Source: Candidatus Colwellbacteria bacterium | Lineage (GTDB): Bacteria > Patescibacteriota > Minisyncoccia > UBA6257 > Colwellbacteraceae | Direction: 5' to 3' | Length of the DNA stretch: 64,000 nt | NCBI GenBank assembly: GCA_016176505.1 | Contig: JACOXB010000006.1 | Span: 7,240-71,239 of the forward strand | Part shown: positions 13,293 to 46,645 of the stretch, in pieces | Numbering within the stretch: the stretch's first letter is position 1 | Layout of the letters: every line of letters begins with the position of its first letter | Program-made: the position numbers and the translations under genes | The notes under the pieces: generated by a model | What the model saw: the letters and a program-made list of their open reading frames with translations, nothing else | Told to the model about the DNA's origin: nothing | Database searches by the model: none

Positions 13293-13506
13293 ATTAAGTA
13301 GGGTAAGTATGACGATTCCCTAATCGGACTCCTTAAAAATAGAACGTTGTGTCAGGTTTTTCGTTTCGAATGTGTCTCAAATAGCAGTGGGGAATCCCAC
13401 TAATCAAGCGACGCGTAATACCTTGATTGTCAACCTCACTGACACCATAGGGGTGTTACGCGTGTGGCAATACATTTAAAGGTCGATAAATAAATCATTA
13501 AAAATA

Positions 13507-15519
13507 ATGACTACAGTTACACGAAAAATAGTTACTGTTTCTGTTTCCGCAGCGACCATAGTATGGCTCTCTGGTGCAGCTATGCTTGCCCCAGTAGCCG
13601 TAGCCCAGACCTCAGCCGAGGTCCAGGCCCAGATTGACGCCTTACTCGCCCAAATTGTAGCCCTTCAGGCCCAATTAGCAGCAAGAGTCGGGGGCGATGC
13701 TTGTTATCCCTACGCCCGTGACCTCACTCTCGGGGTAAGGGGAGATGATGTCTCGGCCGTCCAGACTTACTTAGTTGCCCAAAATAAAGGCGCAAGAGCG
13801 CAGGCTTTAGCTAGCGTTTTCGCTAGCGGCACTGCTAAGGGTTACTTCGGCCCATTGACTCAAGCGGCACTCGCTGAGTATCAAGCCTCGGTTGGTATCT
13901 CGCCTGCCGCTGGTTACTTTGGTCCGATTACTCGAGCCCATCTCCAGGCTGCCTGTGTTTCTCAGCCTCCAGCCGAAGAAGAAGAGAAAAAGGATGGCGA
14001 GCTTAAAGGCGGTGCTGGTGCAGTTGACCAGTACGACTTAGTTTCTGGTCTTCAGAACGAGGAAGTTGGTGAAGATGAAGAGGATGTAGAAGTAGCTGGT
14101 CTTGAGATTGAAGTTTCCGACAGTTCTGACCTCGAGTTCACTGCTGTTACCCTCGACTTTGACCAGAACAATGCTGACAACGATGACTTTGATGAGTACG
14201 CCGATGAAGTCTCTGTCTGGCTTGATGGCGAGGAGGTCGGCCGCGTCGATGCCAGTCGTTTCGATGAGGATACTGGCTGGCGACGGACTATCACTCTTGA
14301 TAGAGGCGCCATTATTCGCGCTGGTGACACTGGCGAACTCATAGTGGCTATAAGCGGTGTTAGGAATCTCGACAGTAATGACGAGGGCGAAACTTGGGAT
14401 GTCGACTTCGATTTGGTTCGCTACCGTGACGCTACTGGTGCTTCTACCTCAGAAGACCCAGGCACGGCTGTCCGGACCTTCTCGTTCGAAACCTTTGCCA
14501 CTGCGTCTGATCTTGAGCTTCGGGTAAGACTGAATGAGGATGACGAGGACATTAACGACGCCCACGTCATCGACATCGATGATGCTAATGACACGGATGA
14601 TGTTGAATTCCTTTCCTTCACCATGGAAGCGAGAGGGAGGTCCGACATTACCATTGATGAAATTCCGGTTGTGATTACAACTACCGAAGCCGCTGGAGCG
14701 AACTTCGATGACCCTGATGACGTTATCACCAGTGTTTCACTTTGGAGAAACGGCAGGAGGGTTGCCACCGAAAATTTGAGCGCGGCTGACGCCAACGATG
14801 ACACCGAGACCGTTACCTTTGACGACCTCGATCTCGAACTTGATGCCGGCGATATCGACGAGTTTATGGTCAAGCTTGACCTTGTCTCGACTGGTGACGC
14901 GCTTGATAACGGCGATACTATTCAGGTTCAAATGACAGCGGTTGAAGTCGACGCCATTGATGCCGAAGACGAGTCTGGCGAAGAGCTGGTTGCGGCCGAC
15001 CTAACCGGCACGGCCTTAGCTGATGCCCACGTTGTGTATGACGCGGGTATTATAGTTGAGTTCGTGAGCGCCACTGCCACTCGATCGTTTACGGCAGATG
15101 AGGCGGGCGAGTCTGACACTGGGGAGTACAAGATTACCTTTAGGGTGACGGCCTTCGATGGCGACATGAGGATTGACCGTACCTGCGAGGACGACAACGG
15201 CGCTGATGCTGACGGTCAGGGCACTGTCTTTGACTTCACGGTAAGCGCTGGTGATGAGGTGGGTTGGACCGTTGGCTGTCTCTTGAGTTCCAGCTCTGCT
15301 GACAGCGAAGATACGGCTAACACCTTTGAGGTTGATGAAAATAAGACTCGTACCTTCACTCTCACGGTTAATGTCACTCCCGATGAAGACAGCTTCGTCG
15401 AGGTGGCAATTGAGTCCATCAACTGGGGTACTAACCAGGACAACACGAACGCTGAGGACTACACCTTCAGTTTGGATGAATTCAAGACCGACTCGATCTT
15501 CTTGAACGATATCCCGTAG
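13507..15519 (+). CDS. Secreted protein with a peptidoglycan-binding-like domain and a long Asp/Glu-rich region
   Basis: Signal peptide. PG_binding_1-like segment (DVSAVQTYL ... GYFGPLTQAALAEYQ). The remainder is highly acidic. GC is about 55%, higher than neighbours. Confidence 0.55.
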   Translation: MTTVTRKIVTVSVSAATIVWLSGAAMLAPVAVAQTSAEVQAQIDALLAQIVALQAQLAARVGGDACYPYARDLTLGVRGDDVSAVQTYLVAQNKGARAQALASVFASGTAKGYFGPLTQAALAEYQASVGISPAAGYFGPITRAHLQAACVSQPPAEEEEKKDGELKGGAGAVDQYDLVSGLQNEEVGEDEEDVEVAGLEIEVSDSSDLEFTAVTLDFDQNNADNDDFDEYADEVSVWLDGEEVGRVDASRFDEDTGWRRTITLDRGAIIRAGDTGELIVAISGVRNLDSNDEGETWDVDFDLVRYRDATGASTSEDPGTAVRTFSFETFATASDLELRVRLNEDDEDINDAHVIDIDDANDTDDVEFLSFTMEARGRSDITIDEIPVVITTTEAAGANFDDPDDVITSVSLWRNGRRVATENLSAADANDDTETVTFDDLDLELDAGDIDEFMVKLDLVSTGDALDNGDTIQVQMTAVEVDAIDAEDESGEELVAADLTGTALADAHVVYDAGIIVEFVSATATRSFTADEAGESDTGEYKITFRVTAFDGDMRIDRTCEDDNGADADGQGTVFDFTVSAGDEVGWTVGCLLSSSSADSEDTANTFEVDENKTRTFTLTVNVTPDEDSFVEVAIESINWGTNQDNTNAEDYTFSLDEFKTDSIFLNDIP

Positions 15520-15550
15520 GTTGAGTAGCGTAGTTTACGCGAGTAGTGTT

Positions 15551-15594
15551 AAAACCAAAACCGGTCCGACTACAGTCGGACCGGTTTTGGTTTT
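15551..15594. terminator. Long perfect hairpin (bidirectional terminator) after the 670-aa gene
   Basis: aaaaccaaaaccggtccgac taca gtcggaccggttttggtttt. Confidence 0.6.
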
Positions 15595-15713
15595 AGTCGC
15601 CCAGTCGGCCGTCTCGGGAAAACTCCCGTTTTCCCGACCCCTTTCCCGTTCGAATCTTAGCCCGTCATCATAAAACAAAAATCCCTCGCCACAAGGCGGG
15701 GACTTTTGTTTTG

Positions 15714-15784
15714 CTGCCGGGCAGGGATTCGAACCCCGATACTCAGGTCCAAAACCTGATGTCCTACCATTAGACGACCCGGCA
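15714..15784 (-). tRNA. tRNA-Gln (anticodon TTG)
   Basis: Minus-strand cloverleaf. Acceptor TGCCGGG/CCCGGCA, anticodon stem TCAGG/CCTGA with loop TTTTGGA, T-arm GGGGTTCGAATCCCT. No CCA encoded. Confidence 0.8.
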
Positions 15785-15809
15785 ATCATGGATTATCATA
15801 TTAAAACCG

Positions 15810-16271
15810 ATGGCGAAAAACAAATTGTTCGTTGGTTTGATGGTCGGAGTGGTTGCCTTGAGTCTCTTGGGTCTCACCGGTCTTTTTAATGTGCCTTTCG
15901 GCGGCTCTGACAATTCATCCGAAGATAACAGCGGCCCCAAAAGCGTTCCTTGTCTTACAAGTGAGGCTTTCCACATTCATCCCGAACTAACCGTTTTAGT
16001 TAACGGCCAAAAAGAGGCTGTTCCGGCGAATATCGGCATTGTGCCTGGTTGCACTCGCGAGCTTCACACCCACGCTACTGACGGGGTGATTCACGTCGAG
16101 TCAGCGGTTGACCGGGGTTATGTTTTTACTAACTTTCTCGCGGTCTGGGGTAAATCGCTCGAGCGAGGAGGCTATGACTTAAAAATAACTGTTGATGGCG
16201 CCGAAACAACCGATCCGAATTTTATCTTAAAAGACGGTCAAGAAATTATTCTCGAATATACTAGTTTATAA
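15810..16271 (+). CDS. Secreted hypothetical protein
   Basis: Signal peptide; coherent 153-aa ORF. Confidence 0.45.
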   Translation: MAKNKLFVGLMVGVVALSLLGLTGLFNVPFGGSDNSSEDNSGPKSVPCLTSEAFHIHPELTVLVNGQKEAVPANIGIVPGCTRELHTHATDGVIHVESAVDRGYVFTNFLAVWGKSLERGGYDLKITVDGAETTDPNFILKDGQEIILEYTSL

Positions 16272-16277
16272 ACTATC

Positions 16278-16319
16278 ACAGAATATTATAACATTCTACA
16301 GAATGTTATAATATTCTGT
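16278..16319. repeat. AT-rich 42-bp palindrome, family P, copy 1
   Basis: acagaatattataacattct a cagaatgttataatattctgt; related copies at 22870, 39032, 57078. Confidence 0.65.
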
Positions 16320-16339
16320 ACCAAGGCTTAAAAGTAATA

Positions 16340-16403
16340 AAAAAGACCCGCGTTGCGAATCTTACGGAGAGAGCGGTCCGATTCAAATCGGACCGCTCTC
16401 TCC
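16340..16403 (-). terminator. Hairpin terminator downstream of the minus-strand zinc-ribbon gene
   Basis: ggagagagcggtccgat tcaa atcggaccgctctctcc is a 17-bp perfect stem; a T-tract follows on the minus strand about 20 nt later. Confidence 0.45.
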
Positions 16404-16409
16404 TTCCGT

Positions 16410-16871
16410 TCAGTCCCGGTCCCAGCCGTTCGCGACCAGCGTGACCGTTCCCTCCCCAGGAAGGTACGCATCACGTGGGAGATAGTCGTCAGTGCCGGGG
16501 ATCCTAACGGTCTGCAGGCCCATCTGTTGGACCGCCGCCTCGATCTGCTCCGGCCGAACTCGCCGTCGGGCTTCTTGGATCACCTCGTCGAGGAACTCCT
16601 TCGGCACCCGCGAGAGCACGCCGCACTGGGGGCAGTAGAGTCCTGGATCGAACCCGACTGATCCCTGAACGATGTATCTGAGGTTCGTGCCCCCCCGGGG
16701 CGAGAGCTCAGTCCCCATTTCGTGCTCGAACTGCGCGTGGCAGACTGGGCAACTCATCTGCGTTCTGCAGACGAGTTGCGGCCTGGCGTTGAGCGGTCCG
16801 CCGGAACCTCTGGCCTCGATCGAAAACTTCAGAACATTCATCCGTTTCACCTCCCTCCGTTCACTATTCAC
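16410..16871 (-). CDS. GC-rich hypothetical protein with two CxxC pairs (zinc ribbon)
   Basis: CPVC ... CPQC. GC is about 60%. The start codon is uncertain. Confidence 0.4.
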   Translation of the reverse strand: MNSERREVKRMNVLKFSIEARGSGGPLNARPQLVCRTQMSCPVCHAQFEHEMGTELSPRGGTNLRYIVQGSVGFDPGLYCPQCGVLSRVPKEFLDEVIQEARRRVRPEQIEAAVQQMGLQTVRIPGTDDYLPRDAYLPGEGTVTLVANGWDRD

Positions 16872-16943
16872 TTCTCGAAGACCTACGGCGAGGATATCGA
16901 GATTTTATATTTTTGTCAAGAGGCGGTGAAAAAGTTTTTAGAT

Positions 16944-22767: not shown

Positions 22768-22869
22768 ATGATGTACTATTTTGCTTAGAAATATGCTTTT
22801 GAGCACTGCTATGCTATAGCATAGTGTTGTGACACGTCAAAGCACCTAATTTATTCATCGTTACAAAGA

Positions 22870-22914
22870 TATTATAACATTATGTATAATCACATTATAC
22901 AGAATGTTATAATA
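22870..22914. repeat. AT-rich palindrome family P, copy 2 (variant with central CAC and TATAAT in both arms)
   Basis: tattataacattatgtataat cac attatacagaatgttataata. Confidence 0.6.
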
Positions 22915-22979
22915 ATTATTTTACGTAGTTGCGTATGTAAAAATGAGAAGGACCCGCGGGATGTCCTTCCCAACGGGTC

Positions 22980-23270
22980 CTAGACCAGTGCGCCGAGCTC
23001 GGCGAGAGCCGCTTCGATCTGGTTCTTCTTGACCTTGATGGCGGCCGATGCCGCCTCACGCCGGCCCTGAGCTTTCGCCAGTTCGGCCGCAGCGGACTCC
23101 ACGTTGTAGTACATGTTGTGGTCGTCCCGACGGTGGGTGCCGTCCTTGAGGGCTTGTTGCCAGAAGTCGTAAGACCTCTTGGTCTCGGCGTACTCCACCT
23201 GCAGTTCGATCAGCTCGTTCTGGAGTCGTACGACTTCCAACAGCTTCGCGACCTGCTCGGTCACGTCCAT
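22980..23270 (-). CDS. GC-rich coiled-coil hypothetical protein
   Basis: 96 aa, about 60% GC, heptad-like sequence. Confidence 0.4.
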   Translation of the reverse strand: MDVTEQVAKLLEVVRLQNELIELQVEYAETKRSYDFWQQALKDGTHRRDDHNMYYNVESAAAELAKAQGRREAASAAIKVKKNQIEAALAELGALV

Positions 23271-23504
23271 CTCGATTCCTTTCTGAAGTGCGAAAGCTGC
23301 GAATAGCAGCCATTACCAGACCACCTGATAACCCAGCCAGATTAGCATAAATCTACGATAAGGTCAAGGTATCTAGCTCTTAAAAACGACCCCCTCTCTT
23401 TTCGTAAAACACATCATTTATATAACTTTTATTGACATAGATATAAAAAGGTGATATTTTAAGGGAGTATCGGCTTCCGCTGATATACCCCCAAGAGGGG
23501 GTCC

Positions 23505-23906
23505 TTGTCCCTTAGCAACTCGGAGAGGGACCGGTTGAAGGAGGCAATCGTGTTCGTCGCCTACGGCTTTATCATCAAGCCGGTCAAGGGTCCGTTCTAC
23601 AACCATCCGCCCCTTGGCACGGGCGATATCCTGAAGCTCCGGAAGCTCTTCCCCGACAACCCGATCTGGCAGGCCAGGACCAGTGGGGTCGGCAACGCCT
23701 ACCACCCGACGCCGGAGCAAGCACGTGCCTTCTACTACGCGTTGAAGGCCTACGCCGAGGCGCACGAGGTGAGCAGCGAGCAGTACCCAACTGGCAACAC
23801 CACCGGGCGGTTTCTCGTCTACAGCGATCTCAAGTCTGTCTTCGACGACCTCATCCCCTTCTTCGAGGACGAGCTCGACCTCCCGCGCACAAGGCGCACA
23901 GCCTAA
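23505..23906 (+). CDS. GC-rich hypothetical protein
   Basis: 133-aa ORF, about 60% GC; a hairpin plus T-tract follows at 23945-23970. Confidence 0.4.
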   Translation: MSLSNSERDRLKEAIVFVAYGFIIKPVKGPFYNHPPLGTGDILKLRKLFPDNPIWQARTSGVGNAYHPTPEQARAFYYALKAYAEAHEVSSEQYPTGNTTGRFLVYSDLKSVFDDLIPFFEDELDLPRTRRTA

Positions 23907-24011
23907 CGGCCCGCATGCGGCACAGTCTTATGGAAAGACTCGCCCCGCGTGCGGGTTTTTCCATTTAGAGAGGAAAGGGAACATATCTCTTGGTGTATAA
24001 TTTGAGTTAGA

Positions 24012-25499: not shown

Positions 25500-25500
25500 A

Positions 25501-34071: not shown

Positions 34072-34117
34072 GTGTATTCCGAGGGAGGGCTAAGCCATTC
34101 CTATTCGAATGTCCATC

Positions 34118-34143
34118 CTGCTACTGAGCATGCTCAGTAGCAG
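34118..34143. repeat. Palindrome ctgctactgagcatgctcagtagcag, copy 2 (candidate operator)
   Basis: Same 26-bp inverted repeat as 33044-33066, about 30 bp upstream of the AbrB-like ORF. Confidence 0.5.
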
Positions 34144-34173
34144 GTTCAGTAGCAATCCTCTAAGATATTAGAG

Positions 34174-34347
34174 ATGGTAAAGAAACCTCATATCCGAAAA
34201 CTCACCCGCATGGGCGGCGGCCGCTCGCTCGGTCTCGTCCTCCCCGCCGATTTAGTCCGCGACCTCAACTGGCGCGAACGCCAAAAAGTCGTGGTCAAGA
34301 AGGTCGGGAAAAGGATAGTCGTCGAGGATTGGCCAGTTCGAGAGTGA
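34174..34347 (+). CDS. AbrB/MazE/SpoVT-family small DNA-binding protein (57 aa)
   Basis: MVKKPHIRKLTRMGGGRSLGLVLPADLVRDLNW... has a swapped-hairpin-like core. About 60% GC. Not in the ORF track (shorter than 60 aa). Immediately upstream of the methyltransferase. Confidence 0.45.
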   Translation: MVKKPHIRKLTRMGGGRSLGLVLPADLVRDLNWRERQKVVVKKVGKRIVVEDWPVRE

Positions 34348-34359
34348 GGGGGTAATTTC

Positions 34360-35313: not shown

Positions 35314-35316
35314 ACT

Positions 35317-36426: not shown

Positions 36427-36516
36427 TACGAACGGGGGAGATAGTAAGGGAGATTAAAATTGTTGAGAGCGGGTCAGATTGATGGGGGAAGAGGTAGGGT
36501 TTAGAATAAGGTCATC

Positions 36517-37542
36517 ATGGAACGCAAAACATTAATTCAACAAATAGAGGGATTAAGGAGCTCCAAGGTAATCACTTATATCACTAGCGATCGGCAGGGG
36601 CCGGTGAGCGCTAAAGTGGCTATGGATATCATTCCCGTCATGAGCCGACAGCTTCGAGATATCGGAAAAACCGAAAACATCGATTTATTTCTTTATAGTA
36701 CGGGGGGAGATACTATGGTGCCGTGGCGTTTGGTCTCTATGGTCAGGGAATACTGCGAGAAGTTTTCCGTACTAATACCATACAAAGCCCATAGTGCGGC
36801 AACTATGATTGCGCTCGGGGCGGATGAAGTAGTGATGAGCGATCTCTCTGAGCTGTCACCGATCGATCCGTCAACGGCAAACGTTTTTAACCCAATCGAT
36901 CCAAAAAATCCGCAGAATAGAGTTGCCATCTCCGTCGAAGACGTAATGGCCTATTTCGATCTAGTTAAAAACAAATTTGGGGTGAAAAACGACGAGGACC
37001 TCACTAAAGTCTTCGTAAAGTTTATCGAGTCGAACCCTCAGATTCACCCTCTAGCACTAGGTAACGTAAATCGTATCCATAATTTAATTCGTATTCTTGC
37101 GCAGAGGCTTCTAAAAAGCCACAGGTCGCCCATGAAAGAGGAAGAAATAAATAAAGTGGTTGATTACTTTACGGAAAAACTTTACTCACACCAATACTTT
37201 ATCGGTCGCAAAGAAGCCAAAGAAGATCTGGGGCTAAAAACGGTAGTTTTTGCTGATAGCGCACTTTCTAAAGCGATGACCGATCTTTACGGAGAATATG
37301 AGAAAGAAATGGAACTCGGTGTAATATGGAATCCGGAAAATGAGCTCGGCCTAAACGCTGCACAGAATAGAAAAACATATAAGATTGCCTTTATTGAGGG
37401 CAACCAACCCTCGAATTATTTTGAACTTGAAGTCGAATATCGCAGGCAGCAGATGAATGTAGCCCAACAAACTCCTCAAGGCTCGATCCAGGTTCCGCAA
37501 GAACAGGTTATTTGGCGGGTTGTCGGCCAGGGGTGGAGATAA
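36517..37542 (+). CDS. ClpP-fold serine protease (SDH / S49-like family)
   Basis: LFLYSTGGDTMVPWRL ... YKAHSAATMIALGADEV aligns with the ClpP/S49 oxyanion and catalytic-Ser regions. Confidence 0.55.
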   Translation: MERKTLIQQIEGLRSSKVITYITSDRQGPVSAKVAMDIIPVMSRQLRDIGKTENIDLFLYSTGGDTMVPWRLVSMVREYCEKFSVLIPYKAHSAATMIALGADEVVMSDLSELSPIDPSTANVFNPIDPKNPQNRVAISVEDVMAYFDLVKNKFGVKNDEDLTKVFVKFIESNPQIHPLALGNVNRIHNLIRILAQRLLKSHRSPMKEEEINKVVDYFTEKLYSHQYFIGRKEAKEDLGLKTVVFADSALSKAMTDLYGEYEKEMELGVIWNPENELGLNAAQNRKTYKIAFIEGNQPSNYFELEVEYRRQQMNVAQQTPQGSIQVPQEQVIWRVVGQGWR

Positions 37543-37551
37543 GGAATACCT

Positions 37552-37974
37552 ATGTCGACCATTAAACCAAAAATAAATTACGCCTTTCTATGTGATTATG
37601 CCTTTATTAGTGGGGGCGATAAGTTAAATATTATCGGGATTTTTAAAAACATAAACACGCAGAATCTTCCAGCTCAACACCCTTTGATGTTTGTGGTTAC
37701 TAGTATAGCCGTGGCGACTAAGGGTAACTTTAAAGTAAATATCAAATTTGTTCGCCGGCTAGATAATGTGGAGATAATCCCGCCCCTAGATTTCGATATT
37801 TCCATGGTTTCAGATGAGGGATCTAGAGAGGGGGAACTTGGCGTAATAGGTCAAATTGCAAATCTAAAATTCGAGGAAGCCGGGATGTACGATGTCCTAG
37901 TTCTTGTTAACGGAGAGAACATAGGAAGTTTGCCTCTCCAAGTACTCCATTTAAAGAAAAATGCCGCGAAATAA
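37552..37974 (+). CDS. Hypothetical 140-aa protein (second gene of the protease operon)
   Basis: 10-bp spacing from the protease gene; soluble; no family recognised. Confidence 0.4.
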   Translation: MSTIKPKINYAFLCDYAFISGGDKLNIIGIFKNINTQNLPAQHPLMFVVTSIAVATKGNFKVNIKFVRRLDNVEIIPPLDFDISMVSDEGSREGELGVIGQIANLKFEEAGMYDVLVLVNGENIGSLPLQVLHLKKNAAK

Positions 37975-38344
37975 AAAAGCGGAGAAGCCGAAATCATCAT
38001 TTCAATTTCTGGCAACAGAGAGTGAGTCGACTGGTGATATAACGCCGCTGGAAAAACGAGTAAGTCCTATCGAGATCAGGGTTGGGCAACTCGAGGTAAA
38101 ACTAGAGGCGCTAGAAGAACGACTGAAAGGCGAACGAGCTCTAAAATTATGGGTGATAGGTACCGTACTAGCGATTGTTGCAGGCATTTTCGGGGCCCTT
38201 ACGATATACATCAATTTAACCAAAGATTCACAGGACTCATACCGAGAGCTTCAGAATAATTATTACGAGAAACTACTGGAGCTAAGGAAAGATATTTTAT
38301 CAGAGAAAAACGCTAGCTCTCAACCACCTCAAAGCGCTAAGTGA
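37961..38344 (+). CDS. Coiled-coil protein with one TM helix (127 aa)
   Basis: Overlaps the previous gene by 14 nt; heptad region then a TM segment. Confidence 0.4.
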   Translation: MPRNKKAEKPKSSFQFLATESESTGDITPLEKRVSPIEIRVGQLEVKLEALEERLKGERALKLWVIGTVLAIVAGIFGALTIYINLTKDSQDSYRELQNNYYEKLLELRKDILSEKNASSQPPQSAK

Positions 38345-38388
38345 GCAGGATCCTCGGACAGCCGTAATTTAATTGAGAAATAAAATTT

Positions 38389-38955
38389 ATGGATAATTTC
38401 GAATTTTTTATTAGGAATACTTCTATAAATATAAGAGAGCTTAGGGATAAAATCGGTAAGTCGTTGCTCGATCTTAGAGTAGATAATATTAAACAAATCA
38501 GAGAACTTATTAAGCAGTTTATTATAATTTCCGGTGCGATTATCGGTTTCACGATACCGGTGTTTGGAAGAACTAAACTTATCAGAACGCCAGTATTTCT
38601 TACCGGTGGACTAATAGAGCTGTTAATCGTCATGGTGTATGCCTTTTATTACCTGATGCATATTTTAGAGAGCGAAAATCAAAAGTTAGGAGAACAGCAC
38701 GAACGTTATAATAAGATTATTGATAGCCTAAGAGATAATCTGATTATTTTTGCCACGAGCGATAAGACCGAGAAAGACGCACAAAAGCAACTTGACTCCG
38801 ATAAACAAGTGTTGGATGAATTTCTATCCGAAGAGGCGGGCGACAAGGGTAATAAGAAAGATTACGCCTTAAATATTATTTTTTCTGCGTTTTTGGTCGG
38901 ACTCGTATTGATAATCTTATCAATGATAAATTTTCAGAATTTAATTTCGGATTAG
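38389..38955 (+). CDS. Three-TM membrane protein (188 aa)
   Basis: AT-rich; hydrophobic helices at roughly 55-75, 85-110 and 165-185; charged coiled-coil middle region. Confidence 0.4.
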   Translation: MDNFEFFIRNTSINIRELRDKIGKSLLDLRVDNIKQIRELIKQFIIISGAIIGFTIPVFGRTKLIRTPVFLTGGLIELLIVMVYAFYYLMHILESENQKLGEQHERYNKIIDSLRDNLIIFATSDKTEKDAQKQLDSDKQVLDEFLSEEAGDKGNKKDYALNIIFSAFLVGLVLIILSMINFQNLISD

Positions 38956-39031
38956 CATTATGGAAAAGTTAGTTTCGCTCGGATTTATATTTATCGTAGT
39001 GAGCCTGGGGTTTTACGGCCTCTAAGTTATT

Positions 39032-39072
39032 ACAGATATTATAACATTCTGCAGAATGTTATAATGTTCTAT
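39032..39072. repeat. AT-rich palindrome family P, copy 3
   Basis: acagatattataacattctg cagaatgttataatgttctat. Confidence 0.6.
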
Positions 39073-39121
39073 TTATGACAAATTGATGGCGGAGCGGTTG
39101 TGCTATATTTAAACTATATCA

Positions 39122-39559
39122 ATGAGATGGAGCGGGAATAGGGATTTATCAAAATGGTTTATTCCCTTTATGGCTTTGTGGGGGATTTTCTTTGGCGAGT
39201 TCTTGCCGGTGTGCTTGGAGAATAGTTTTAACTGTTTCCCCAAAACAACGCCGCCAGGCGCCAAAGAGTCAATGTTCTCCGGCCTTGATATGTTCATCCC
39301 AACCGTAGTGATTTATTTTATTCTGGCTACGGTTTTCTGGTGGCTCTATCGAAAACTAGATTGGAAAATAGTCTTTGTTATAGCGATTGTGGTCGGTCAG
39401 GTTCTGGAGTTTGCCTTCTTTAGGCCCCAAGAGGGAGACGGCGTAAATGTGGTTGATAATCCGCTCTACTCATTCTTATTTTTCTTAATCATCTGGCCAA
39501 TTCTACTCGTAGCGCCATATGGCATTTTCCAGAAATTCTTTGCCAAGAAGAAGAAATAA
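39122..39559 (+). CDS. Membrane protein (hypothetical)
   Basis: 145 aa with 4 TM helices. Confidence 0.4.
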   Translation: MRWSGNRDLSKWFIPFMALWGIFFGEFLPVCLENSFNCFPKTTPPGAKESMFSGLDMFIPTVVIYFILATVFWWLYRKLDWKIVFVIAIVVGQVLEFAFFRPQEGDGVNVVDNPLYSFLFFLIIWPILLVAPYGIFQKFFAKKKK

Positions 39560-39579
39560 TTGAGAAATAAAATTTAAAA

Positions 39580-39780
39580 GTGGAGTTATACAGGAAAGAC
39601 GTCAAAGCCGGAATGGAGGTAGAAGTAGTGCTGAAAGAGGATCAGAGGACGGGAGAACTAACCCGCGGAATAGTGGCGGAAATTTTAACCAATTCTGAAT
39701 TTCATCCCCGGGGTATAAAAGTTCGCCTCAAGTCCGGCCAAGTCGGCCGCATCCAAAAAATCCTGCGAATGGTAGAATAA
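39580..39780 (+). CDS. YwbE-family small protein
   Basis: VEVVLKEDQRTGELTRGIVAEILTNS ... HPRGIKVRL matches the YwbE family as I recall it. Confidence 0.55.
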   Translation: MELYRKDVKAGMEVEVVLKEDQRTGELTRGIVAEILTNSEFHPRGIKVRLKSGQVGRIQKILRMVE

Positions 39781-39784
39781 ACGC

Positions 39785-40261
39785 ATGAAAGTTAATAGCT
39801 TTCTTAAATTACTTATCGCCATTAGTATCTCGGAATTCGCCGGAATCGTTGGCTCGTTTTTTACCGTTTCGGCAGTCCCGAACTGGTATGCCGCTCTCGA
39901 GAAACCAGTATTAAACCCGCCGAGCTGGATCTTCGGACCGGTTTGGATCATCCTCTACGCCTTAATGGGAGTTGCCGTATTTCTGGTCTGGGAGAAGGGC
40001 TGGAAGAAAAGAGAAGTTAAAAAGGCGCTTGGTGTATTTGGGATTCAGCTTTTCCTAAACGCTATCTGGTCAATCGTCTTTTTCGGTCTTCAAAATCCTT
40101 TTTGGGCTCTGATTAATATCGCCTTTCTTTGGCTCGCGATTATTTGGACAATATTTAAGTTTTATCCACTTTCGAAGCCGGCGTCATATCTACTCGCGCC
40201 CTATATCTTATGGGTTAGTTTCGCTGTATATTTAAACTACGCTATTTGGGCTCTAAATTAA
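39785..40261 (+). CDS. tspO: TspO/MBR tryptophan-rich sensory protein
   Basis: Five TM helices and a Trp-rich signature (NPPSWIFGPVWIILY). Confidence 0.75.
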   Translation: MKVNSFLKLLIAISISEFAGIVGSFFTVSAVPNWYAALEKPVLNPPSWIFGPVWIILYALMGVAVFLVWEKGWKKREVKKALGVFGIQLFLNAIWSIVFFGLQNPFWALINIAFLWLAIIWTIFKFYPLSKPASYLLAPYILWVSFAVYLNYAIWALN

Positions 40262-40270
40262 AATAGAATT

Positions 40271-40540
40271 GTGGCGGTAATTCATAAAAAATCTTGGCCG
40301 GAGCAATTTGAAGCAATCTTTTCGAGAAGGAAAAAGTTTGACCTCCGACTGGCCGATTTTGAGGCCAAGGAAGGGGATACGATAGTGTTTGAAGAATGGG
40401 ATCCGAAAAAGAAAGAATATACTGGCCGGAAAATCGAGAAGAAAATCACTTTTGTTTTTAAATTTAAGCCTGACGAGTCCCCATACCACTCCAAAGAAGA
40501 AATTCAAAAATACGGTTTTCAGATCTTTTCTCTCGAATAG
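40271..40540 (+). CDS. DUF3850 (ASCH-like) small protein
   Basis: HKKSWPEQFEAI ... FDLRLADF pattern. Confidence 0.45.
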   Translation: MAVIHKKSWPEQFEAIFSRRKKFDLRLADFEAKEGDTIVFEEWDPKKKEYTGRKIEKKITFVFKFKPDESPYHSKEEIQKYGFQIFSLE

Positions 40541-40687
40541 GTCGCTCCCAATCATATTTGACTTTATTATCAATATAGAGTAGAATAGGCGAGTAAGTTT
40601 CTTGTTTCCCTTCCTTGCATAAAACCTATGTAAGCTTGAAGGATAAGCTAAGATAGGTCGACTTACTCTCACAATATGTAAGGAGAA

Positions 40688-40921
40688 ATGGCAAAGAAGT
40701 TGTACGTAGGCGGATTGTCCTTCATCACTGACAGAGCCACTGGCCGTTCCAAGGGTTTTGGTTTTGTTGAGATGTCTACTGACGAAGAAGCTCAGAAAGC
40801 GATTGAAATGTTCAATGGCAAAGAGCTTGACGGCAGAACAGTGACAGTCAACGAGGCCAAGCCGATGGAGGATCGTCCCCGTGGGGGCGGTGGCGGCTTC
40901 GGCGGTCGAAACCGCTGGTAG
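40688..40921 (+). CDS. RRM-type glycine-rich RNA-binding protein
   Basis: RNP2 LYVGGL, RNP1 KGFGFVEM, Gly-rich tail. Preceded by a 140-nt 5' UTR. Confidence 0.8.
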   Translation: MAKKLYVGGLSFITDRATGRSKGFGFVEMSTDEEAQKAIEMFNGKELDGRTVTVNEAKPMEDRPRGGGGGFGGRNRW

Positions 40922-40975: not shown

Positions 40976-41638
40976 ATGATAAAACTTTCGCCGTCAGCTT
41001 TAAATTTATTTCTTGAATGTCCCCGGTGTTTCTGGGCCGAGCGGGTGAGGGGAATCCATCGGCCGAATGGGCCGTTTCCGTCACTCCCTGGCGGCATTGA
41101 TAGCGTGCTTAAGAAATACTTTGATAAGTTTCGGGAAAAAGACGAACTGCCGCCGGAAATTGAAGGTAAGGTTGAAGGCAAGCTATTGAACGATCCGGTT
41201 CTCCAGATTTGGCGGCAAAATCTGAAAGGCATACGGTATTACGATAAGGAACTCGATGCCGAGCTAATGGGGGCCTTGGATGACTGCTTAATTGACGGCA
41301 GTGATTATATTGCGGTTGATTATAAAACCCGGGGCTGGCTCCCCAAAGATGATTCTCATACTTATTATCAAAACCAGCTTAATGTCTATACGCTTCTCCT
41401 CGAGAAGAACGGCTACAAGCACAAAAATTTTGCCTATCTTGTTTTCTATTCTCCAGAGGAAGTACTGGGGCAGGGGACTATCAAGTTCAATGTCGAGGTT
41501 CGAAAAGTAGAGGTTAATCCAAAAGTGGCTTATAAGGTTTTTGAAGAAGCAGTTGAAGTTTTACGCGGACCTCAGCCACCGGCGCATTCCGATTGCCAGT
41601 TTTGTTCCTGGGGAAACGACTATATTATCCTCGACTAA
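40976..41638 (+). CDS. Cas4-like PD-(D/E)XK nuclease with four Cys (putative Fe-S); stand-alone
   Basis: N-terminal CPRC, DYKT (D-ExK), QxxxY (QLNVYTLL), C-terminal CQFC. No cas genes or array nearby. Confidence 0.55.
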   Translation: MIKLSPSALNLFLECPRCFWAERVRGIHRPNGPFPSLPGGIDSVLKKYFDKFREKDELPPEIEGKVEGKLLNDPVLQIWRQNLKGIRYYDKELDAELMGALDDCLIDGSDYIAVDYKTRGWLPKDDSHTYYQNQLNVYTLLLEKNGYKHKNFAYLVFYSPEEVLGQGTIKFNVEVRKVEVNPKVAYKVFEEAVEVLRGPQPPAHSDCQFCSWGNDYIILD

Positions 41639-41657
41639 AAACAACTAAGGAGTATAA

Positions 41658-41700
41658 AAACGCGAAAGCCCCTGGACGCGGGAGCAGGAGCTCTCGCGTC
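41658..41700. terminator. Bidirectional GC-rich hairpin between convergent genes
   Basis: cccctggacgcgggag caggag ctctcgcgtccagggg. Confidence 0.5.
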
Positions 41701-41708
41701 CAGGGGCA

Positions 41709-42200
41709 TCAGAGGTACTGACCAGGGTGACCGGCGTCGTCGGTGGTCTTGGGCCCATCAGGGCTCTGGGTTTGGAAAGGAAACGGAATTCCCACCACGA
41801 TCGGGATCGGTCCCGATTCTGCTTTAGGTTCGGGTTCAGACCAGACTACAGTCCAGTCCTTCCGTATGCTGACTGAAGGGGTGGCCCAGAGCTCGAAGGC
41901 GGCGTCGATTGAGAGCCGGAAGACGCCGAGGATCAGCCTTGACTCGCGGCGGAGCCTGGCGGCTCTTTGCGTTAGTCGCTCTCGCTCAGCTTTGTCAGTT
42001 GAGCGGTTAGCAGCGACGAAGTTCTCGAAGCCGTCTTGATCGCGCCGGATCCCCAGGGTGTAGAGCTTCTTGAGGTCGAGGTCGGACAGTCGGCCGACGA
42101 CGTGGTCTCCGTCTTCAACTTCTGTGTCCGGCTCGATTAGATTCTCCTCGCTCATTTCCTCGAGTTCTCGCTGGATAAGCTCCAGCCAAGGTGCGCCCAT
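41709..42200 (-). CDS. Hypothetical protein (GC-rich, 163 aa)
   Basis: Coherent ORF at about 58% GC. Confidence 0.35.
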   Translation of the reverse strand: MGAPWLELIQRELEEMSEENLIEPDTEVEDGDHVVGRLSDLDLKKLYTLGIRRDQDGFENFVAANRSTDKAERERLTQRAARLRRESRLILGVFRLSIDAAFELWATPSVSIRKDWTVVWSEPEPKAESGPIPIVVGIPFPFQTQSPDGPKTTDDAGHPGQYL

Positions 42201-42324
42201 CGTCTTCCTCCCTTCAGAGAACTAGATTGTCAACAACAGCTACTTATTTTATAACCCAGTTTTATTGGTAATGTCAATCGTGAATAATCATGTTTACTGG
42301 GCTATTATTAAGTAAAGAGAATAA

Positions 42325-42558
42325 ATGAGGATATTTGTTAAAGCCAAGCCGAATGCTAAAGAGACGCGGATTGAGAAACTAGATGAGAATCGTTTTGCCG
42401 TAGCGGTGAAAGAGCCGCCGATTGGCGGCCGAGCTAATGTCGCGATTGAAAAGGTGATTGCTGAGCACTTTAAAGTGCCAGTCTCAAGAGTGCGGATTGT
42501 TTCCGGCCATACTTCGCGGCAAAAAGTATTCGAGATAACAGGCGAACTTTTTTGTTAG
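42325..42558 (+). CDS. DUF167 / YggU-family protein
   Basis: KAKPNAK ... V ... PP..G.AN ... FEI pattern. Confidence 0.6.
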   Translation: MRIFVKAKPNAKETRIEKLDENRFAVAVKEPPIGGRANVAIEKVIAEHFKVPVSRVRIVSGHTSRQKVFEITGELFC

Positions 42559-43514
42559 TTTTTCAACCTTGAGCCGCTGTGAAATTTTTTATGGATTTCG
42601 CGCAGTTTTTTACTGGTAACGTGAGTATAAATTTGAGTGGCCGTAATGCTCTGATGTCCTAGAAATTCTTGAAGGATGCGGATGTCCACTCCTTGGCTTA
42701 AGAGATCTGTCGCGAAAGAGTGACGAAGAACATGAGGGGTAGTGTTCGCGGGTAAACCGGCGAGAAGCGCATATTTTTGGATGCTCTTCTCAATAGATCG
42801 AGCGGTAAGGCGGCGTGAGGCGCTAGACATGCTCCTATAGTTTATAAATAGGGCCTTATCATTATCAGTACGAGATTTCAGGTATCTTTTAAGCCATTGA
42901 AGCGTTCTTGACGAAAAATACACCGTACGGGCCCTACTGCCTTTGCCAACAATTCCTAGTTCTAGCTCATTTAAATTAAGTGACGATTGAATTTGTTCGC
43001 GATTTAGGGCAACCAGTTCTGATATCCGCATGCCGGTGGAAAAAAATGTTTCGAGTATGGCCCTATCTCTAAGTCCGCTCGCCTTATTCACGTTAGGAAT
43101 CGAAAATAATCTTTCAAGTTGTTCTAGCGTGAGAAAACGGACCTCTTTCTCGCCTTTATCGCGAGGTAATTTTATTTTCTCTGGCGGCAGGGCTAGAATG
43201 TCGCGCTCAGCAAAATAAGTTAATAAAGAGCGCAGGGCTATCAAATAATAAGCCTGGGTGCTTTTACTGAGCGATTTTGAAGACCGCTTGGATCGGGTCT
43301 GACGGGCGAGGTAGATTCGGTATTTCCAGACATGGTCAGGGGAGAGGTCGTGAGGTTTTAAATCAGAGAGTTTATTTTCTTTTAACCAATCTAAAAACCG
43401 ATTTAAAAACCGAGCATAATTTTCTTGAGTTTTAGATGATAAACCTTTTTGGACATCAAGCCAGTCTAAATAATCTGGAAGATGCTGGGGAAGTGGTTTT
43501 GAGCTTTTAACCAT
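42555..43514 (-). CDS. xerC: Tyrosine site-specific recombinase XerC/XerD
   Basis: HVLRHSFATDLL ... GHQSITATQIYTHV catalytic box (R..H..R..Y) and an N-terminal core-binding domain. Confidence 0.8.
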   Translation of the reverse strand: MVKSSKPLPQHLPDYLDWLDVQKGLSSKTQENYARFLNRFLDWLKENKLSDLKPHDLSPDHVWKYRIYLARQTRSKRSSKSLSKSTQAYYLIALRSLLTYFAERDILALPPEKIKLPRDKGEKEVRFLTLEQLERLFSIPNVNKASGLRDRAILETFFSTGMRISELVALNREQIQSSLNLNELELGIVGKGSRARTVYFSSRTLQWLKRYLKSRTDNDKALFINYRSMSSASRRLTARSIEKSIQKYALLAGLPANTTPHVLRHSFATDLLSQGVDIRILQEFLGHQSITATQIYTHVTSKKLREIHKKFHSGSRLKN

Positions 43515-44961: not shown

Positions 44962-44980
44962 TATTATGTATACCGTATAG

Positions 44981-45748
44981 ATGTATTTTCGGGACGAAAA
45001 TCATTTTAAGGGAACCAATGGTTATGTGATTGACGATGTTTGGTATCCCCGCGTAACCGCGATTGTTAATATCAAAGCCAAACCGGCGCTTTACCGCTTT
45101 TACGCTGAACTTGAAGATTTTGCTGCTGGCGAGGCCATTAAAAAAAAGTCGGCTGATGAGGGCACGAGAGTTCACGAAACAGCTGAGGCGATTTTAGTTG
45201 GCGATCAGCCGATTGTGACCCCGGATATTGCGCCGGCGATAGAGGCTTTTCGGAAATTTCTTGGCGAGCGGAATGTCCAGGTTGACCGCGACTGGGTTGA
45301 GAAAAGAATTATTAACTACAGCGAACGTTATGCCGGCACGATTGACGCCCTGGCTTTAATCGACGGTAAGTTCGGCTTAATAGATATTAAAACCTCGCAA
45401 GCTATTTATCGCGATTATAATCTTCAGACTGCGGCTTATCTTCCTCCCCTTTTAGATCAGTTTCGTAATCTTCAGACCCGCTGGATTTTAAGAATTGATC
45501 AGATCCAAAAATGTTTAAAATGCGGTGCTATTCGCCGAGTGAAAGGCGGCCGCGAAAAAATCAGGACTCAATTTAATAATGGTACCAAGTCTTGTATTGA
45601 ATCAGAACATGAGTGGTCAGAACTGGCGGGAGAAGTTGAGCTAAAAGAATTCCCCTACTGGCAGGATGATTATCAGGCTTTCCTTAGCGCTAAAAAACTT
45701 TGGGAATGGGAAAATGATTATTGGCTGAAATTGATCGGTTATCTTTGA
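44981..45748 (+). CDS. Second PD-(D/E)XK-family nuclease (RecB/lambda-exo-like) with inserted CxxC ribbon
   Basis: GTIDALALIDGKFGLIDIKTSQ (D ... D/ExK), QTAAY (QxxxY), CLKCG. Confidence 0.45.
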   Translation: MYFRDENHFKGTNGYVIDDVWYPRVTAIVNIKAKPALYRFYAELEDFAAGEAIKKKSADEGTRVHETAEAILVGDQPIVTPDIAPAIEAFRKFLGERNVQVDRDWVEKRIINYSERYAGTIDALALIDGKFGLIDIKTSQAIYRDYNLQTAAYLPPLLDQFRNLQTRWILRIDQIQKCLKCGAIRRVKGGREKIRTQFNNGTKSCIESEHEWSELAGEVELKEFPYWQDDYQAFLSAKKLWEWENDYWLKLIGYL

Positions 45749-45825
45749 CAATAGGGCGCTTTTATTGTTAGGATTCTCCTGTAGTTCTTCGATAGCGCTT
45801 CGATAATAAGGGAGGAAGGGATTAG

Positions 45826-46137
45826 ATGGGCAGTGTCGTGGAAGATGCGATCATTCAGCAGTTCACGAGAGTCTTCGGCGAGGAGAGCGTCGTCTACTTG
45901 ATGGGCGGCGAATCCAAAGAAGTGGCGGTCAGGAAGATGCAGCTCGCTTCAGAGCTCGCTCGCGAACTCGCCCGACAGAATGTCAGTGAACCAGTGATCT
46001 CAACCTGGTTTACAAGAGAAAGTCCGAGGCTCGACGGCCAGAAGCCGCTCGAGTTTCTGGCGGAGAAGTCGGTTCAGGAGGCCCGGGCAGAGCTCTGGGA
46101 ACTGGTTAGGGCTGGGATCGACTACGATAAGATGTAG
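45826..46137 (+). CDS. DUF2384 (Xre/MbcA/ParS-type) antitoxin-like protein
   Basis: C-terminal WFTRESPRLDGQKPLEFL ... VQEARAELWELVRAGIDY resembles the DUF2384 toxin-binding domain. About 60% GC. Confidence 0.45.
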   Translation: MGSVVEDAIIQQFTRVFGEESVVYLMGGESKEVAVRKMQLASELARELARQNVSEPVISTWFTRESPRLDGQKPLEFLAEKSVQEARAELWELVRAGIDYDKM

Positions 46138-46145
46138 GAGGTGCG

Positions 46146-46463
46146 ATGAATAATTCTCCGGTGCCGGTAATTGAGGTTGAGGAGTTGAGGTACGGCAGGA
46201 TAAAGTACCAGGTAACGGCTTTGGTCTGGCCGAACCTCTGGCTGCGTTACGCGCGGACTTGGCACGGGGCGATTCGCCTCGTCGAAGAGTTCGGCAGGAG
46301 GCTGGAAGCTCGGGGTGTGCGCGTCATCGGCATCGGGGTGTATCTCGCGAGGCCTCCCGCCACCTGGACGCCGTCGACGCCGTTGCCGGGCGGCCGGGAA
46401 GCTCCGATCCGTGGCGGGCCTGGTCAACCATACCCTCCGGGCATGCTGGAGGAGAAGGAGTAG
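46146..46463 (+). pseudogene. Possible degraded partner toxin gene (pseudogene?) downstream of the antitoxin
   Basis: The first ~65 aa look protein-like, then Pro/Gly-rich low complexity. No intact RES-type domain recognised. Confidence 0.2.
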
Positions 46464-46645
46464 CTTCATCCTCTTGGGGTGAAGCTACTCCAAGAGGATC
46501 TACGGTGTTATATTATTTTCAATAATAATCGGCGTTTGCTGCCAGTCTCGGCCAATAAGATAACCAATACCAAAGCTTAAAAGACTAATTAAGAATACTA
46601 AGAGCGCTATTTGGACATAGGGCTTTTTTATTAAATTACGAATTC

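Follow-up and report, generated by a model that had tools for sequence, protein, structure and literature searches.

Acquired islets and islands in bacterial genomes are reportedly recognised by their atypical base composition in the amelioration framework of Lawrence and Ochman, and the phage morons of Hendrix and colleagues are said to be promoter-gene-terminator units of deviant guanine-plus-cytosine (GC) content lying between phage genes. Here we compare with these systems a set of GC-rich islets in a 64-kb stretch of contig JACOXB010000006.1 (the window, 64,000 nucleotides, analysed over its full length) from a Candidatus Colwellbacteria genome, which belongs to the class Paceibacteria of the candidate phyla radiation (CPR, or Patescibacteria). 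An earlier note on this DNA had described nine such islets and proposed repeated uptake of small fragments from high-GC donors, possibly from an actinobacterial host. The best explanation of the pattern as a whole, to which we give a probability of roughly 0.7, is that small horizontally acquired cassettes are inserted in a CPR genome that is poor in Shine-Dalgarno (SD) sites.

Like acquired islets, the cassettes deviate in GC at all codon positions, are absent in close relatives, lie between conserved flanks, are patchily distributed and in some cases may have relatives in distant lineages. They differ in being only 0.4–0.8 kb long with one to three open reading frames (ORFs), in lying singly in intergenic slots and in showing no integrase, transfer RNA (tRNA), direct-repeat or transposase hallmarks; moreover, two of them have not decayed towards the composition of the host, unlike what the amelioration model describes. 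As with morons, each would carry its own promoter, ribosome-binding site, small ORF and terminator, has deviant GC and appears to be inserted exactly between genes. The cassettes, however, lie between chromosomal housekeeping genes (dnaX, murG, gltX and the L27 gene) and not in a prophage, and no phage relatives were found. Integron cassettes share with them small and mostly orphan ORFs, an imperfect inverted repeat after the ORF and strain-variable content, but the window's cassettes lack attC cores (RYYYAAC...GTTRRRY), an integron integrase, attI and an array, and have predicted promoters of their own.

How CPR bacteria gain genes in tiny streamlined genomes is an active question, and the window gives a base-resolution picture of it, in which promoter-to-terminator units of less than 1 kb would drop between essential genes, into gaps that are reused across the lineage. 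The contrast in SD usage, the persistence of high GC at third codon positions (GC3) and two undescribed RNA elements are the unexpected parts. Horizontal gene transfer (HGT) and genomic islands are documented in Patescibacteria (PMC12455944), and the window appears to show ordinary horizontal acquisition at unusually fine grain. That survey concerns the same phylum and groundwater, and includes islands and single-gene transfers of up to 13% of the genome as well as restriction-modification (R-M) islands, comparable to the one at 32–40 kb of the window; it found mostly transfers within the phylum, by tree incongruence, and in the text searched neither single-gene GC-rich SD cassettes in an SD-poor host nor slot reuse is described.

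Composition and expression signals of the islets

The window has a GC content of 45.8%, and the standard deviation of its 300-nt windows (0.057) exceeds the median of 62 related loci (0.041). All nine islets that had been described are present in the GC scan (Table 1). The islet ORFs have GC3 values of 0.66–0.86, against a median of about 0.45 in long native genes. When high-GC3 ORFs (GC3 at least 0.2 over the median) were called by one algorithm in the window and the 62 related loci, the window yielded 9 in 64 kb and the related loci 12 in 1,087 kb, so that 0.7 would be expected in the window (Poisson P = 6e-8) and its density is about 13 times that of related genomes. The GC-islet pattern is real and is a peculiarity of the window's genome. 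No repeat family common to the islets was found, the repeats of the window (a 150-nt element and an AT-rich palindrome) not being islet sequence. The GC segments are of three kinds, namely six cassette loci, a native RNA at 7.5–8.1 kb and a gene at 13.5–15.5 kb whose GC is driven by its amino acids. Two further GC bumps, at 20.6–21.0 and 31.7–32.3 kb, lie inside native genes and are present in the sister species too.

By direct reading of the sequence, each coding islet has a predicted promoter consisting of a TTGACA −35 box and, 17–18 nt on, a −10 box, and three cassette promoters were among the top matches of a consensus scanner. Downstream of it come a 5′ untranslated region (5′UTR) with a GGAGG-type SD, between one and three small ORFs and a GC-rich hairpin of high stability, in most cases with a U-run. 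This layout suggests that at least six loci (0.9–1.6, 16.3–16.9, 22.9–24.0, 28.9–29.5, 41.6–42.3 and 45.7–46.5 kb) are self-contained expression cassettes. We take the hairpins to be terminators because U-runs follow them. The claim that most islets carry their own GC-rich hairpin terminators held for seven units, with folding free energies (dG) of −22 to −52 kcal/mol, and z-scores of −4.2 to −8.4 in six of the seven; the hairpin of the 28.9 kb cassette is the weakest (z −1.6).

Translation signals, measured separately from GC, also set the islets apart from the native genes. Even a 4-nt SD core is present in just 4 of 60 native genes, whose mean duplex with the anti-SD is −1.6 kcal/mol, whereas 7 of 9 islet genes have the core and their mean duplex is −10.5 kcal/mol (p = 2.5e-6 vs. 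native), in support of the proposed foreign origin of the cassettes. As a control for composition, duplexes of −11 kcal/mol or below were found in 4% of 20-nt islet windows vs. 6 of 9 islet starts, and none of 200,000 draws matched the latter. When the best SD over all candidate starts in the first 50 codons was taken, −9 or below was reached by 7% of native and 67% of islet genes (p = 8e-5). Five related Colwellbacteria loci (L003, L006, L007, L014 and L088; loci from other assemblies are numbered with L) are equally SD-poor. Among the 60 native genes, about 17 show a TATAAT-like box 5–12 nt ahead of the start, which suggests that leaderless or SD-independent initiation is widespread. SD usage could serve across SD-poor phyla as a marker of foreign genes that is measured separately from GC.

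Table 1. Islets, cassettes, RNA elements and neighbouring features of the window
Feature	Position	Strand	Contents	Composition and hairpin
Segments of at least 55% GC	852–1708, 7379–8146, 16285–16935, 22888–24077, 28784–29646, 41542–42252, 45783–46611		window GC scan	
Weak GC segment	13527–15369			GC 0.54–0.55
34.2 kb islet	about 175 nt only			GC up to 0.62 in 150-nt windows
Rpf-like cassette	940–1575	+	SD GGAAGGGGGAAAG; ORF 1067–1486 (139 aa); two predicted terminator hairpins	GC3 0.76; dG −51.8, z −7.5
Zinc-ribbon cassette	16325–16925	−	TTGACA-17-TATCCT, a top scanner match; SD GGAGGGAGGTGA; ORF 16410–16841 (143 aa) with two CxxC pairs; two hairpins and U-run	GC3 0.76; dG −43.5, z −7.0
Coiled-coil-like cassette	22920–23300	−	96-aa ORF 22980–23270; predicted terminator hairpin; divergent from the 23.5 kb cassette	GC3 0.82; z −4.8
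23.5 kb cassette	23432–23975	+	TTGACA-17-TATTTT; 5′UTR; SD GGAGG; ORF about 23550–23906 (118 aa); conserved long hairpin, predicted terminator	
Small-protein operon cassette (28.9 kb)	28860–29482	+	possible 28-aa transmembrane (TM) peptide; 76-aa two-TM protein (28934–29164); 87-aa coiled-coil protein (29157–29420); hairpin	GC 0.57–0.61
41.7 kb cassette	41645–42290	−	TTGACA promoters (predicted); SD GGGAGGAAG; 163-aa ORF 41709–42200; hairpin and U-run	GC3 0.68; dG −39.4, z −8.4
Two-gene cassette (45.8 kb)	45745–46510	+	TTGACA-18-TAGGAT, a top scanner match; SD GGGAGGAAGG; ORF 45826–46137 (103 aa); SD AGGAGG; ORF 46146–46463 (105 aa); hairpin	GC3 0.71 and 0.75; z −4.3
AbrB/MazE-like ORF (57 aa)	34174–34347	+	no SD; at the left edge of the low-GC R-M island	GC 0.57; GC3 0.67
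Low-GC R-M island	32260–40688 (8.4 kb)		EcoRI-type adenine methylase; GmrSD-N/HNH nuclease; SDH-type protease; absent from the sister species	GC about 0.35–0.40
Acidic secreted protein (670 aa) with a PG_binding_1 domain	13507–15519	+	Pfam PG_binding_1, 24.9	
GC-rich structured RNA element	7500–8075	−	terminal hairpin and U7, some 30 nt ahead of the start codon of the gene at 6292–7470 (−), an Orn/DAP/Arg decarboxylase	
Rod-like RNA (about 200 nt)	8100–8303	−	directly 5′ of the GC-rich element; conserved in the distant L007 (7851–8036), in a different context	not GC-rich

Slots, age and sources of the cassettes

The closest relative is the assembly CAYNZK01 (loci L003 and L088; the sister species), which is collinear with the window at about 80% amino-acid identity and a synonymous divergence (dS) of 1.4–2.3. 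Anchored on FtsW, the genome of the window itself fell among CPR bacteria, beside Candidatus Colwellbacteria, and two islet proteins matched HYS89_00785 and HYS89_00655 of a Colwellbacteria metagenome-assembled genome at 100% and 99% identity. Comparison with the sister species and other relatives bore out the idea that the coding islets were for the most part inserted between conserved core genes in the window only, since elsewhere the slots are empty or differently filled; the flanking genes include dnaX, murG, gltX, murC and the L27 gene. The islets at 16.4, 22.9–24.0, 28.9 and 45.8 kb are absent from relatives in which the conserved flanks are collinear. The zinc-ribbon slot has 672 bp in the window, an insertion that is derived because the flanking genes abut in L003 and L007. 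Since murG and gltX abut in L003, L006 and L007, the 1,331 bp between them in the window (vs. 35 bp or less in relatives) are likewise derived; this insertion also holds a low-GC ydjM-like gene (28168–28731). The 45.8–46.5 kb islet lies between genes for a 255-aa protein and L27. L007, L008 and L009 have nothing in this slot, and in L006 (15877–16323) it contains an unrelated GC-rich insert with a 148-aa ORF and a GC hairpin.

The slot between a GT4 gene and an amidohydrolase gene varies in content. It measures 161 bp in L003, where no gene occupies it, and 1,502 bp in the window, where there are three; L004 and L091 each have a single gene there, and L007 (8046–8418) has a GC-richer cassette with an XRE-like helix-turn-helix gene and an AAGGAGG SD. 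The 96-aa coiled-coil-like gene is absent from L003, L004 and L091. Comparison of empty and filled sites shows a native TTGACATAGATA element on one side of the inserted 23.5 kb cassette and the amidohydrolase gene's own promoter on the other; the cassette replaces about 70 nt of the empty site, with no target duplication. For the 41.7 kb islet, the sister contig L003 stops at the position matching window 41638. Low-GC DNA has been inserted in the window as well: besides the R-M island, a gene for a 23S rRNA-intervening-sequence protein (PF05635; 26627–27016, GC 0.38) lies between ftsW and murG; L029 and L071 have this gene as well, L003 does not. Low-GC insertions alongside GC-rich ones indicate that the intergenic slots are hot spots of gain in both compositional directions.

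These observations suggest the following course of events. Into a genome whose core genes have about 45% GC3, hardly ever carry an SD and in many cases have a TATAAT box a few bases before the start codon, seven transcription units at six or more loci would have been acquired as complete promoter-to-terminator cassettes. They would derive from a GC-richer, SD-using gene pool of about 60% GC or more, in which the sources were probably not all alike: the Rpf-like gene may trace to organisms or phages of about 71% GC, and the relatives of other families occur at 35–56% GC. The cell would have taken up short DNA fragments and integrated them by illegitimate or homology-facilitated recombination, the most likely route because there is no target duplication, no nearby transposase and no dedicated integrase. 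The same slots would have been reused across the lineage, some cassettes being old (the Rpf-like one) and others varying between near-identical strains (the 23.5 kb one).

Two islets inform on age. The Rpf-like gene occupies the same slot, between FtsX and GT2 genes, in the sister species, at 82% amino-acid identity and with a dS of 1.38 vs. 1.55–2.28 in native genes; its GC3 is 0.74 there and 0.76 in the window. Its presence in that slot suggests that the uptake is older than the split of the two species and that not all uptake was recent. The 23.5 kb gene has a GC3 of 0.85–0.86 at the same slot in L004 and L091 (0.86 in the window) and a dS of 0.39 vs. 1.28–1.36 in its neighbours (3.5-fold lower), with a ratio of nonsynonymous to synonymous divergence (dN/dS) of 0.44. 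L003 and L004 differ by a native dS of only 0.27, yet the gene is present in L004 and absent from L003. The total nucleotide identity of the islet equals that of its flanks, and transfer by homologous recombination was rejected, as no block of raised identity reaches into the flanks.

The sources were approached through a calibration of GC1, GC2 and GC3 (GC at the first, second and third codon positions) against coding GC in 75 loci. Nine pooled islet ORFs (1,039 codons) have GC1/2/3 of 0.63/0.44/0.75, which correspond to a source GC of 0.59/0.59/0.62. This agreement between amino-acid composition and synonymous sites argues against codon-level selection on native genes; the cassettes differ in base composition from the host at both synonymous and nonsynonymous positions, and the 13.5–15.5 kb gene does not. 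Searches of 5.8 billion proteins gave 5 matches for the Rpf-like protein, 2 for the 41.7 kb protein and 8 for the 23.5 kb protein, and a search of 1.84 billion representatives gave 9 for the zinc-ribbon protein, with a top identity of 32%; one relative of 32% identity is encoded on a contig of 54% GC. Outside the lineage, the Rpf-like gene has relatives in two apparently distant 71% GC contigs, and the other families have 1–7 relatives at 35–56% GC.

For the Rpf-like family, the two relatives outside the genus whose DNA was retrieved are both in 71% GC contigs (L084 and L101; Ga0376076_0000111 and SRR22868763_145607), where the gene is compositionally native. One of these contigs is 197 kb long and chromosomal-looking, with zf-CGNR, ABATE, PPK and CHAD genes, a set that we take to be typical of Actinobacteria. 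The contig of the relative P0002, also of 71% GC, is phage-like and carries a RusA gene. P0003–P0005 have Ala/Arg-rich signal peptides, and P0003 and P0005 are like the high-GC member in their Ala/Arg-rich composition. The two homologs of the 41.7 kb protein are that of the source metagenome-assembled genome itself and one of 40% identity, native-looking in a 56% GC contig (L085). For the Rpf-like gene, the proposal of high-GC donors finds support in the two 71% GC contigs; relatives of the other families are found at 56%, 54%, 44% and 35% GC. GC-richer sources of the cassettes are supported; a single actinobacterial donor is not. What remains of the uptake hypothesis is horizontal gain from GC-richer sources, though neither for all islets nor always recently.

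Several results weigh against small horizontally acquired cassettes as the explanation. No mobility genes, direct repeats or target-site duplications were found next to the cassettes, so that the mechanism is inferred. A donor of near-identical sequence was not found either, and the families, as near-orphans, have thin phylogenies. Members of the 23.5 kb family occur at low GC, with a 67% relative of GC3 0.41 in a 44% GC genome (L089) and a 55% relative of GC3 0.50 in a 35% GC contig (L094). L089 and L085 are themselves SD-poor and their copies of the islet families carry AAGGAGG, and they therefore look like recipients rather than sources. Finally, in a decay model (F81 towards GC3 0.47) with the native clock, vertical inheritance would require an ancestral GC3 of 1.04 for the Rpf-like and 1.21 for the 23.5 kb gene, both impossible; with the islets' own four-fold sites as clock the values are 0.95 and 0.96, feasible for a donor of about 70% GC. 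The undecayed GC3 (0.75–0.86) of these two islets implies either later lateral spread into the same slot and boundaries or active maintenance of GC. It can be read in two ways, in that the copies share ancestors younger than the species or that GC3 is maintained, and the two islets make a concrete test case for amelioration models.

The alternative that survives best, which we nevertheless consider unlikely, is a pool of cassettes circulating within Patescibacteria in the manner of morons, by way of phages, plasmids or transformation, with GC and SD as properties of the pool, possibly selected, rather than marks of a recent donor. It would account for the presence of the 23.5 kb family in several SD-poor CPR-like genomes, always with its own strong SD, for the reuse of slots across the lineage, and for a GC3 of 0.85–0.86 in three genomes together with the 3.5-fold reduction in dS and the dN/dS of 0.44; GC1, GC2 and GC3 are concordant, with no faster decay of GC3 visible. 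The survey also has most HGT into Patescibacteria coming from other Patescibacteria (PMC12455944). However, no relatives were found in IMG/VR, INPHARED or PHROGs and no prophage or plasmid genes lie nearby, contigs of 71% GC are where the Rpf-like family has its relatives outside the genus, and the low GC3 of the L089 and L094 members shows that high GC is not intrinsic to the 23.5 kb family.

The individual searches behind this statement covered IMG/VR with alignments of the 23.5 kb and Rpf-like families (nothing found), 50,697 phage genomes of INPHARED by tblastn with four islet proteins (nothing), 72,556 plasmids of PLSDB by tblastn with two islet proteins (nothing) and PHROGs (a single non-significant match). 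A phage or plasmid origin of the cassettes was rejected for want of relatives in these four collections.

That the organism is an episymbiont of an actinobacterium and has repeatedly taken up short fragments of host DNA seems doubtful. In its favour are the Ala/Arg-rich signal peptides of the Rpf-like relatives, one of which is in the 197 kb contig of 71% GC, the occurrence of P0002 beside RusA in phage-like DNA of the same GC, and the back-calculated ancestral GC3 of about 0.95, which fits a donor of about 70% GC. Yet only this one family indicates about 70% GC, the relatives of the others being at 35–56%; the Pfam matches that seemed actinobacterial are below or barely at threshold; and the 50,697 phage genomes and 72,556 plasmids gave no matches. 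We know of no host of Colwellbacteria, which also counts against this proposal. In the survey, Actinomycetota account for 1 of 130 donor events in 125 Patescibacteria (PMC12455944). An actinobacterial host or donor, as the earlier note had suggested, is shown for none of the islets and plausible for one, the Rpf-like.

We think it improbable, to a similar degree, that the SD-bearing GC-rich cassettes are not decaying imports at all but a maintained, separate expression class in a leaderless or SD-lacking lineage. Selection or biased repair would then keep GC3 at 0.75–0.86 across species-level divergence, and cassettes would move between sister species into the same intergenic slots.

Still less probable, and strongly disfavoured by the slot comparison, is that the islets are native genes whose GC3 rose where they stand, either because codons or mRNA structure were under selection or because recombination hot spots underwent GC-biased gene conversion. 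High GC3 does last across species-level divergence, and the GC1 (0.58) and GC2 (0.42) of the 23.5 kb gene are only modestly over native values. The closest relatives, however, lack the genes, and outgroups have closed slots, which largely refutes the proposal; in addition, pooled GC1 and GC2 also fit about 59% GC, the islet genes have foreign-style SD sites, the Rpf-like relatives are compositionally native in 71% GC contigs, and native GC bumps, such as those in the S11 and M23 peptidase genes, differ in appearance and are shared with the sister species.

A chimeric contig, or a bin contaminated with high-GC fragments, is highly improbable: this is a short-read metagenome assembly and its contigs do break at an AT-rich palindrome (22884), but assemblies of up to five SRR runs give the same junctions of islets and core genes at 99.96–100% identity, sister species from other studies have the same islets in the same slots, and host-like AT-rich promoters of islets are fused to native flanks. 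The junctions were reproduced in 2–5 independent run-level assemblies from different SRR runs. Those of two runs cover 22884–25405 (99.96–100% identity), two independent assemblies contain the exact 96-aa protein and two cover the dnaX/zinc-ribbon junction, and five cover both sides of the 45.8–46.5 kb islet. Chimerism is refuted for four of the six cassette loci (Rpf-like, zinc-ribbon, 22.9–24.0 kb and 45.7–46.5 kb).

GC-rich segments of other kinds

The GC block at 7.5–8.3 kb, which had been counted among the imports, is non-coding and has a homolog at the same position in the sister species. Its codon periodicity (7.5–8.1 kb) is nil, with a signal-to-noise ratio of 1.0 vs. 2.0–10.9 in coding islet segments and 10.9 in the native gltX. 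Minimum free energy (MFE) folding gave z-scores of −8.5 (minus strand) and −5.6 (plus strand), and of −5.0 and −3.5 for the two halves, for which RNase P (−3.7) and native coding DNA (roughly −2 to +2.4) serve as references. The sister contig L088 (10790–11058) ends inside the homologous element, and the two copies share CUUUUCGGCCAnAAUUAAAUU, the apical CUUCUCCUC(C)AAGAA and GCCCGyACCUUGA. A long hairpin common to both shows double changes from G-C to C-G and from G-C to A-U, and a further shared hairpin shows a change from C-G to U-A. These comparisons rest on independent MFE folds, as the fold of a MAFFT-based alignment misaligns 3′ arms and undercounts compensatory pairs. The window copy has about 300 nt of additional GC-rich hairpins relative to L088, and in both species a terminator-like hairpin with a U-run precedes the decarboxylase start by about 30 nt. 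Judged by these features, the GC block is probably a native structured RNA and not imported DNA. It would be an RNA gene in its own right or else a very large leader, of attenuator type, that belongs to the decarboxylase gene. In L088 (9558–10766) the decarboxylase gene is called as two ORFs (72 and 309 aa) and may be disrupted; at 8320–9561 the same sister contig has a glycogen-debranching-type (GDE_C) gene that the window (6282–6292) lacks.

Next to this element is a second predicted RNA, the rod-like one of Table 1. All of its 53 predicted pairs are paired in both the window and L007, and 12 of them have changes on both sides. Controls with slid partners gave 0–3 double changes, and 1 of 500 shuffles reached 12; the slid-partner control leans in favour of the rod because the structure was derived from the same two sequences. 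A covariance model of the rod found no further copy in 1.26 Mb of the loci compared, and nhmmer also gave no additional RNA homologs in these loci. A search of the whole window against Rfam, at the gathering score and at E ≤ 1, gave no family for 7500–8303, and at E ≤ 10 on 7440–8360 and L007 only generic hairpin matches to miRNA models. For want of an Rfam match in 7500–8303 we rejected 6S RNA, transfer-messenger RNA (tmRNA), signal recognition particle RNA, riboswitches, T-box, group I and II introns, OLE, GOLLD, ROOL and HEARO as candidates; ARAGORN found no tmRNA in the window. A single metagenome scan with a 19-base conserved motif gave four chance matches in AT-rich coding DNA. Both elements may represent new classes of RNA, the non-coding RNAs of this phylum having hardly been explored, and GC peaks in such genomes are not to be read as HGT by default.

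For the gene of the PG-binding protein, too, the proposal of a high-GC import was not supported. Its GC1/2/3 of 0.63/0.42/0.53 imply sources of 0.59/0.56/0.49, GC3 is near native, and it has no SD; the gene is GC-rich mainly through amino-acid composition, at codon positions 1 and 2. It belongs to a 6.8 kb segment (8865–15709) that the sister species is without, L003 jumping from window 8864 to 15710, and that abuts tRNA-Gln(TTG) (15713–15784). The segment also contains genes for DUF3179, thioredoxin-like, DsbD-like and DUF5667 proteins and for an extracytoplasmic function (ECF) sigma factor (12780–13292); it has native-like composition and no integrase.

Products of the cassettes and other features

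The islet products had been placed in families common in Actinobacteria (Rpf, DUF2384), an assignment that the Pfam scores, below or barely at threshold, do not sustain; the proteins are near-orphans. The product of the Rpf-like ORF carries a signal peptide, shows the motif CESG...GYAG.FQQA.RYW, which is lysozyme-like, and has a helical structure prediction. It scored 17.2 bits against Pfam Transglycosylas (PF06737; cut-off 27) with the CESG motif conserved in the alignment, and its AlphaFold2 (AF2) model is poor (predicted local distance difference test, pLDDT, 52); the protein is plausibly a secreted muralytic enzyme. The 23.5 kb protein has a confident alpha/beta AF2 model (pLDDT 86) with no match in the Protein Data Bank. 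The 41.7 kb ORF marginally exceeds the cut-off for DUF6381 (PF19908; 26.7 vs. 26.6 bits), over 25 residues only.

In gene order the 45.8 kb pair resembles a toxin-antitoxin system, but both genes fall short of family thresholds. The 103-aa ORF scored 17.9 bits against Xre_MbcA_ParS_C (DUF2384; cut-off 24.5), and the downstream 105-aa ORF had no match in Pfam, NCBIfam, PADLOC or PHROG, with no RES/ART toxin identified. Among the islet proteins PADLOC returned only a 33-residue zinc-ribbon match and NCBIfam nothing useful. A known defence or toxin-antitoxin function of the cassettes was rejected on these PADLOC and NCBIfam results. The 57-aa AbrB/MazE-like ORF scored 21.9 bits against MazE_antitoxin (cut-off 24.7); lying just upstream of the methylase gene, it could encode a controller protein. 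Near-identical hairpins flank DNA of this R-M island at 33044–33088 and 34099–34143. A tyrosine recombinase gene at 42555–43514 has orthologs across the relatives and looks like a housekeeping Xer protein.

Repeats of several kinds occur in the window. One of about 150 nt has four copies (771–862, 1588–1740, 59849–59996 and 63001–63142; 85–97% identical over their common part), which lie upstream of, and co-oriented with, the Rpf-like, GT2, phosphoglycerate kinase and GalT/HIT-like genes. The Rpf islet has a copy on either side, and the sister species lacks the repeat there. It may be an element like a miniature inverted-repeat transposable element or a shared leader. The AT-rich palindrome ATATTATAACATTCTnCAGAATGTTATAAT is found at 16263–16321, 22859–22925, 39036–39075 and 57076–57137 and contains an extended −10 box in both directions. 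Three of its four copies lie between convergent gene ends, among them one just after the RNase P RNA; short-read assemblies break at the palindrome. The RNase P RNA itself (class A; 57200–57590, minus strand) scores 104.6 bits vs. a gathering score of 100, has large indels relative to the model and is a divergent form of the CPR type. The gene at 50570–51337, just downstream of tRNA-Gln(CTG), lies between the two copies (50486–50550 and 51351–51415; 92% identical) of a GC-rich direct repeat of 65 nt.

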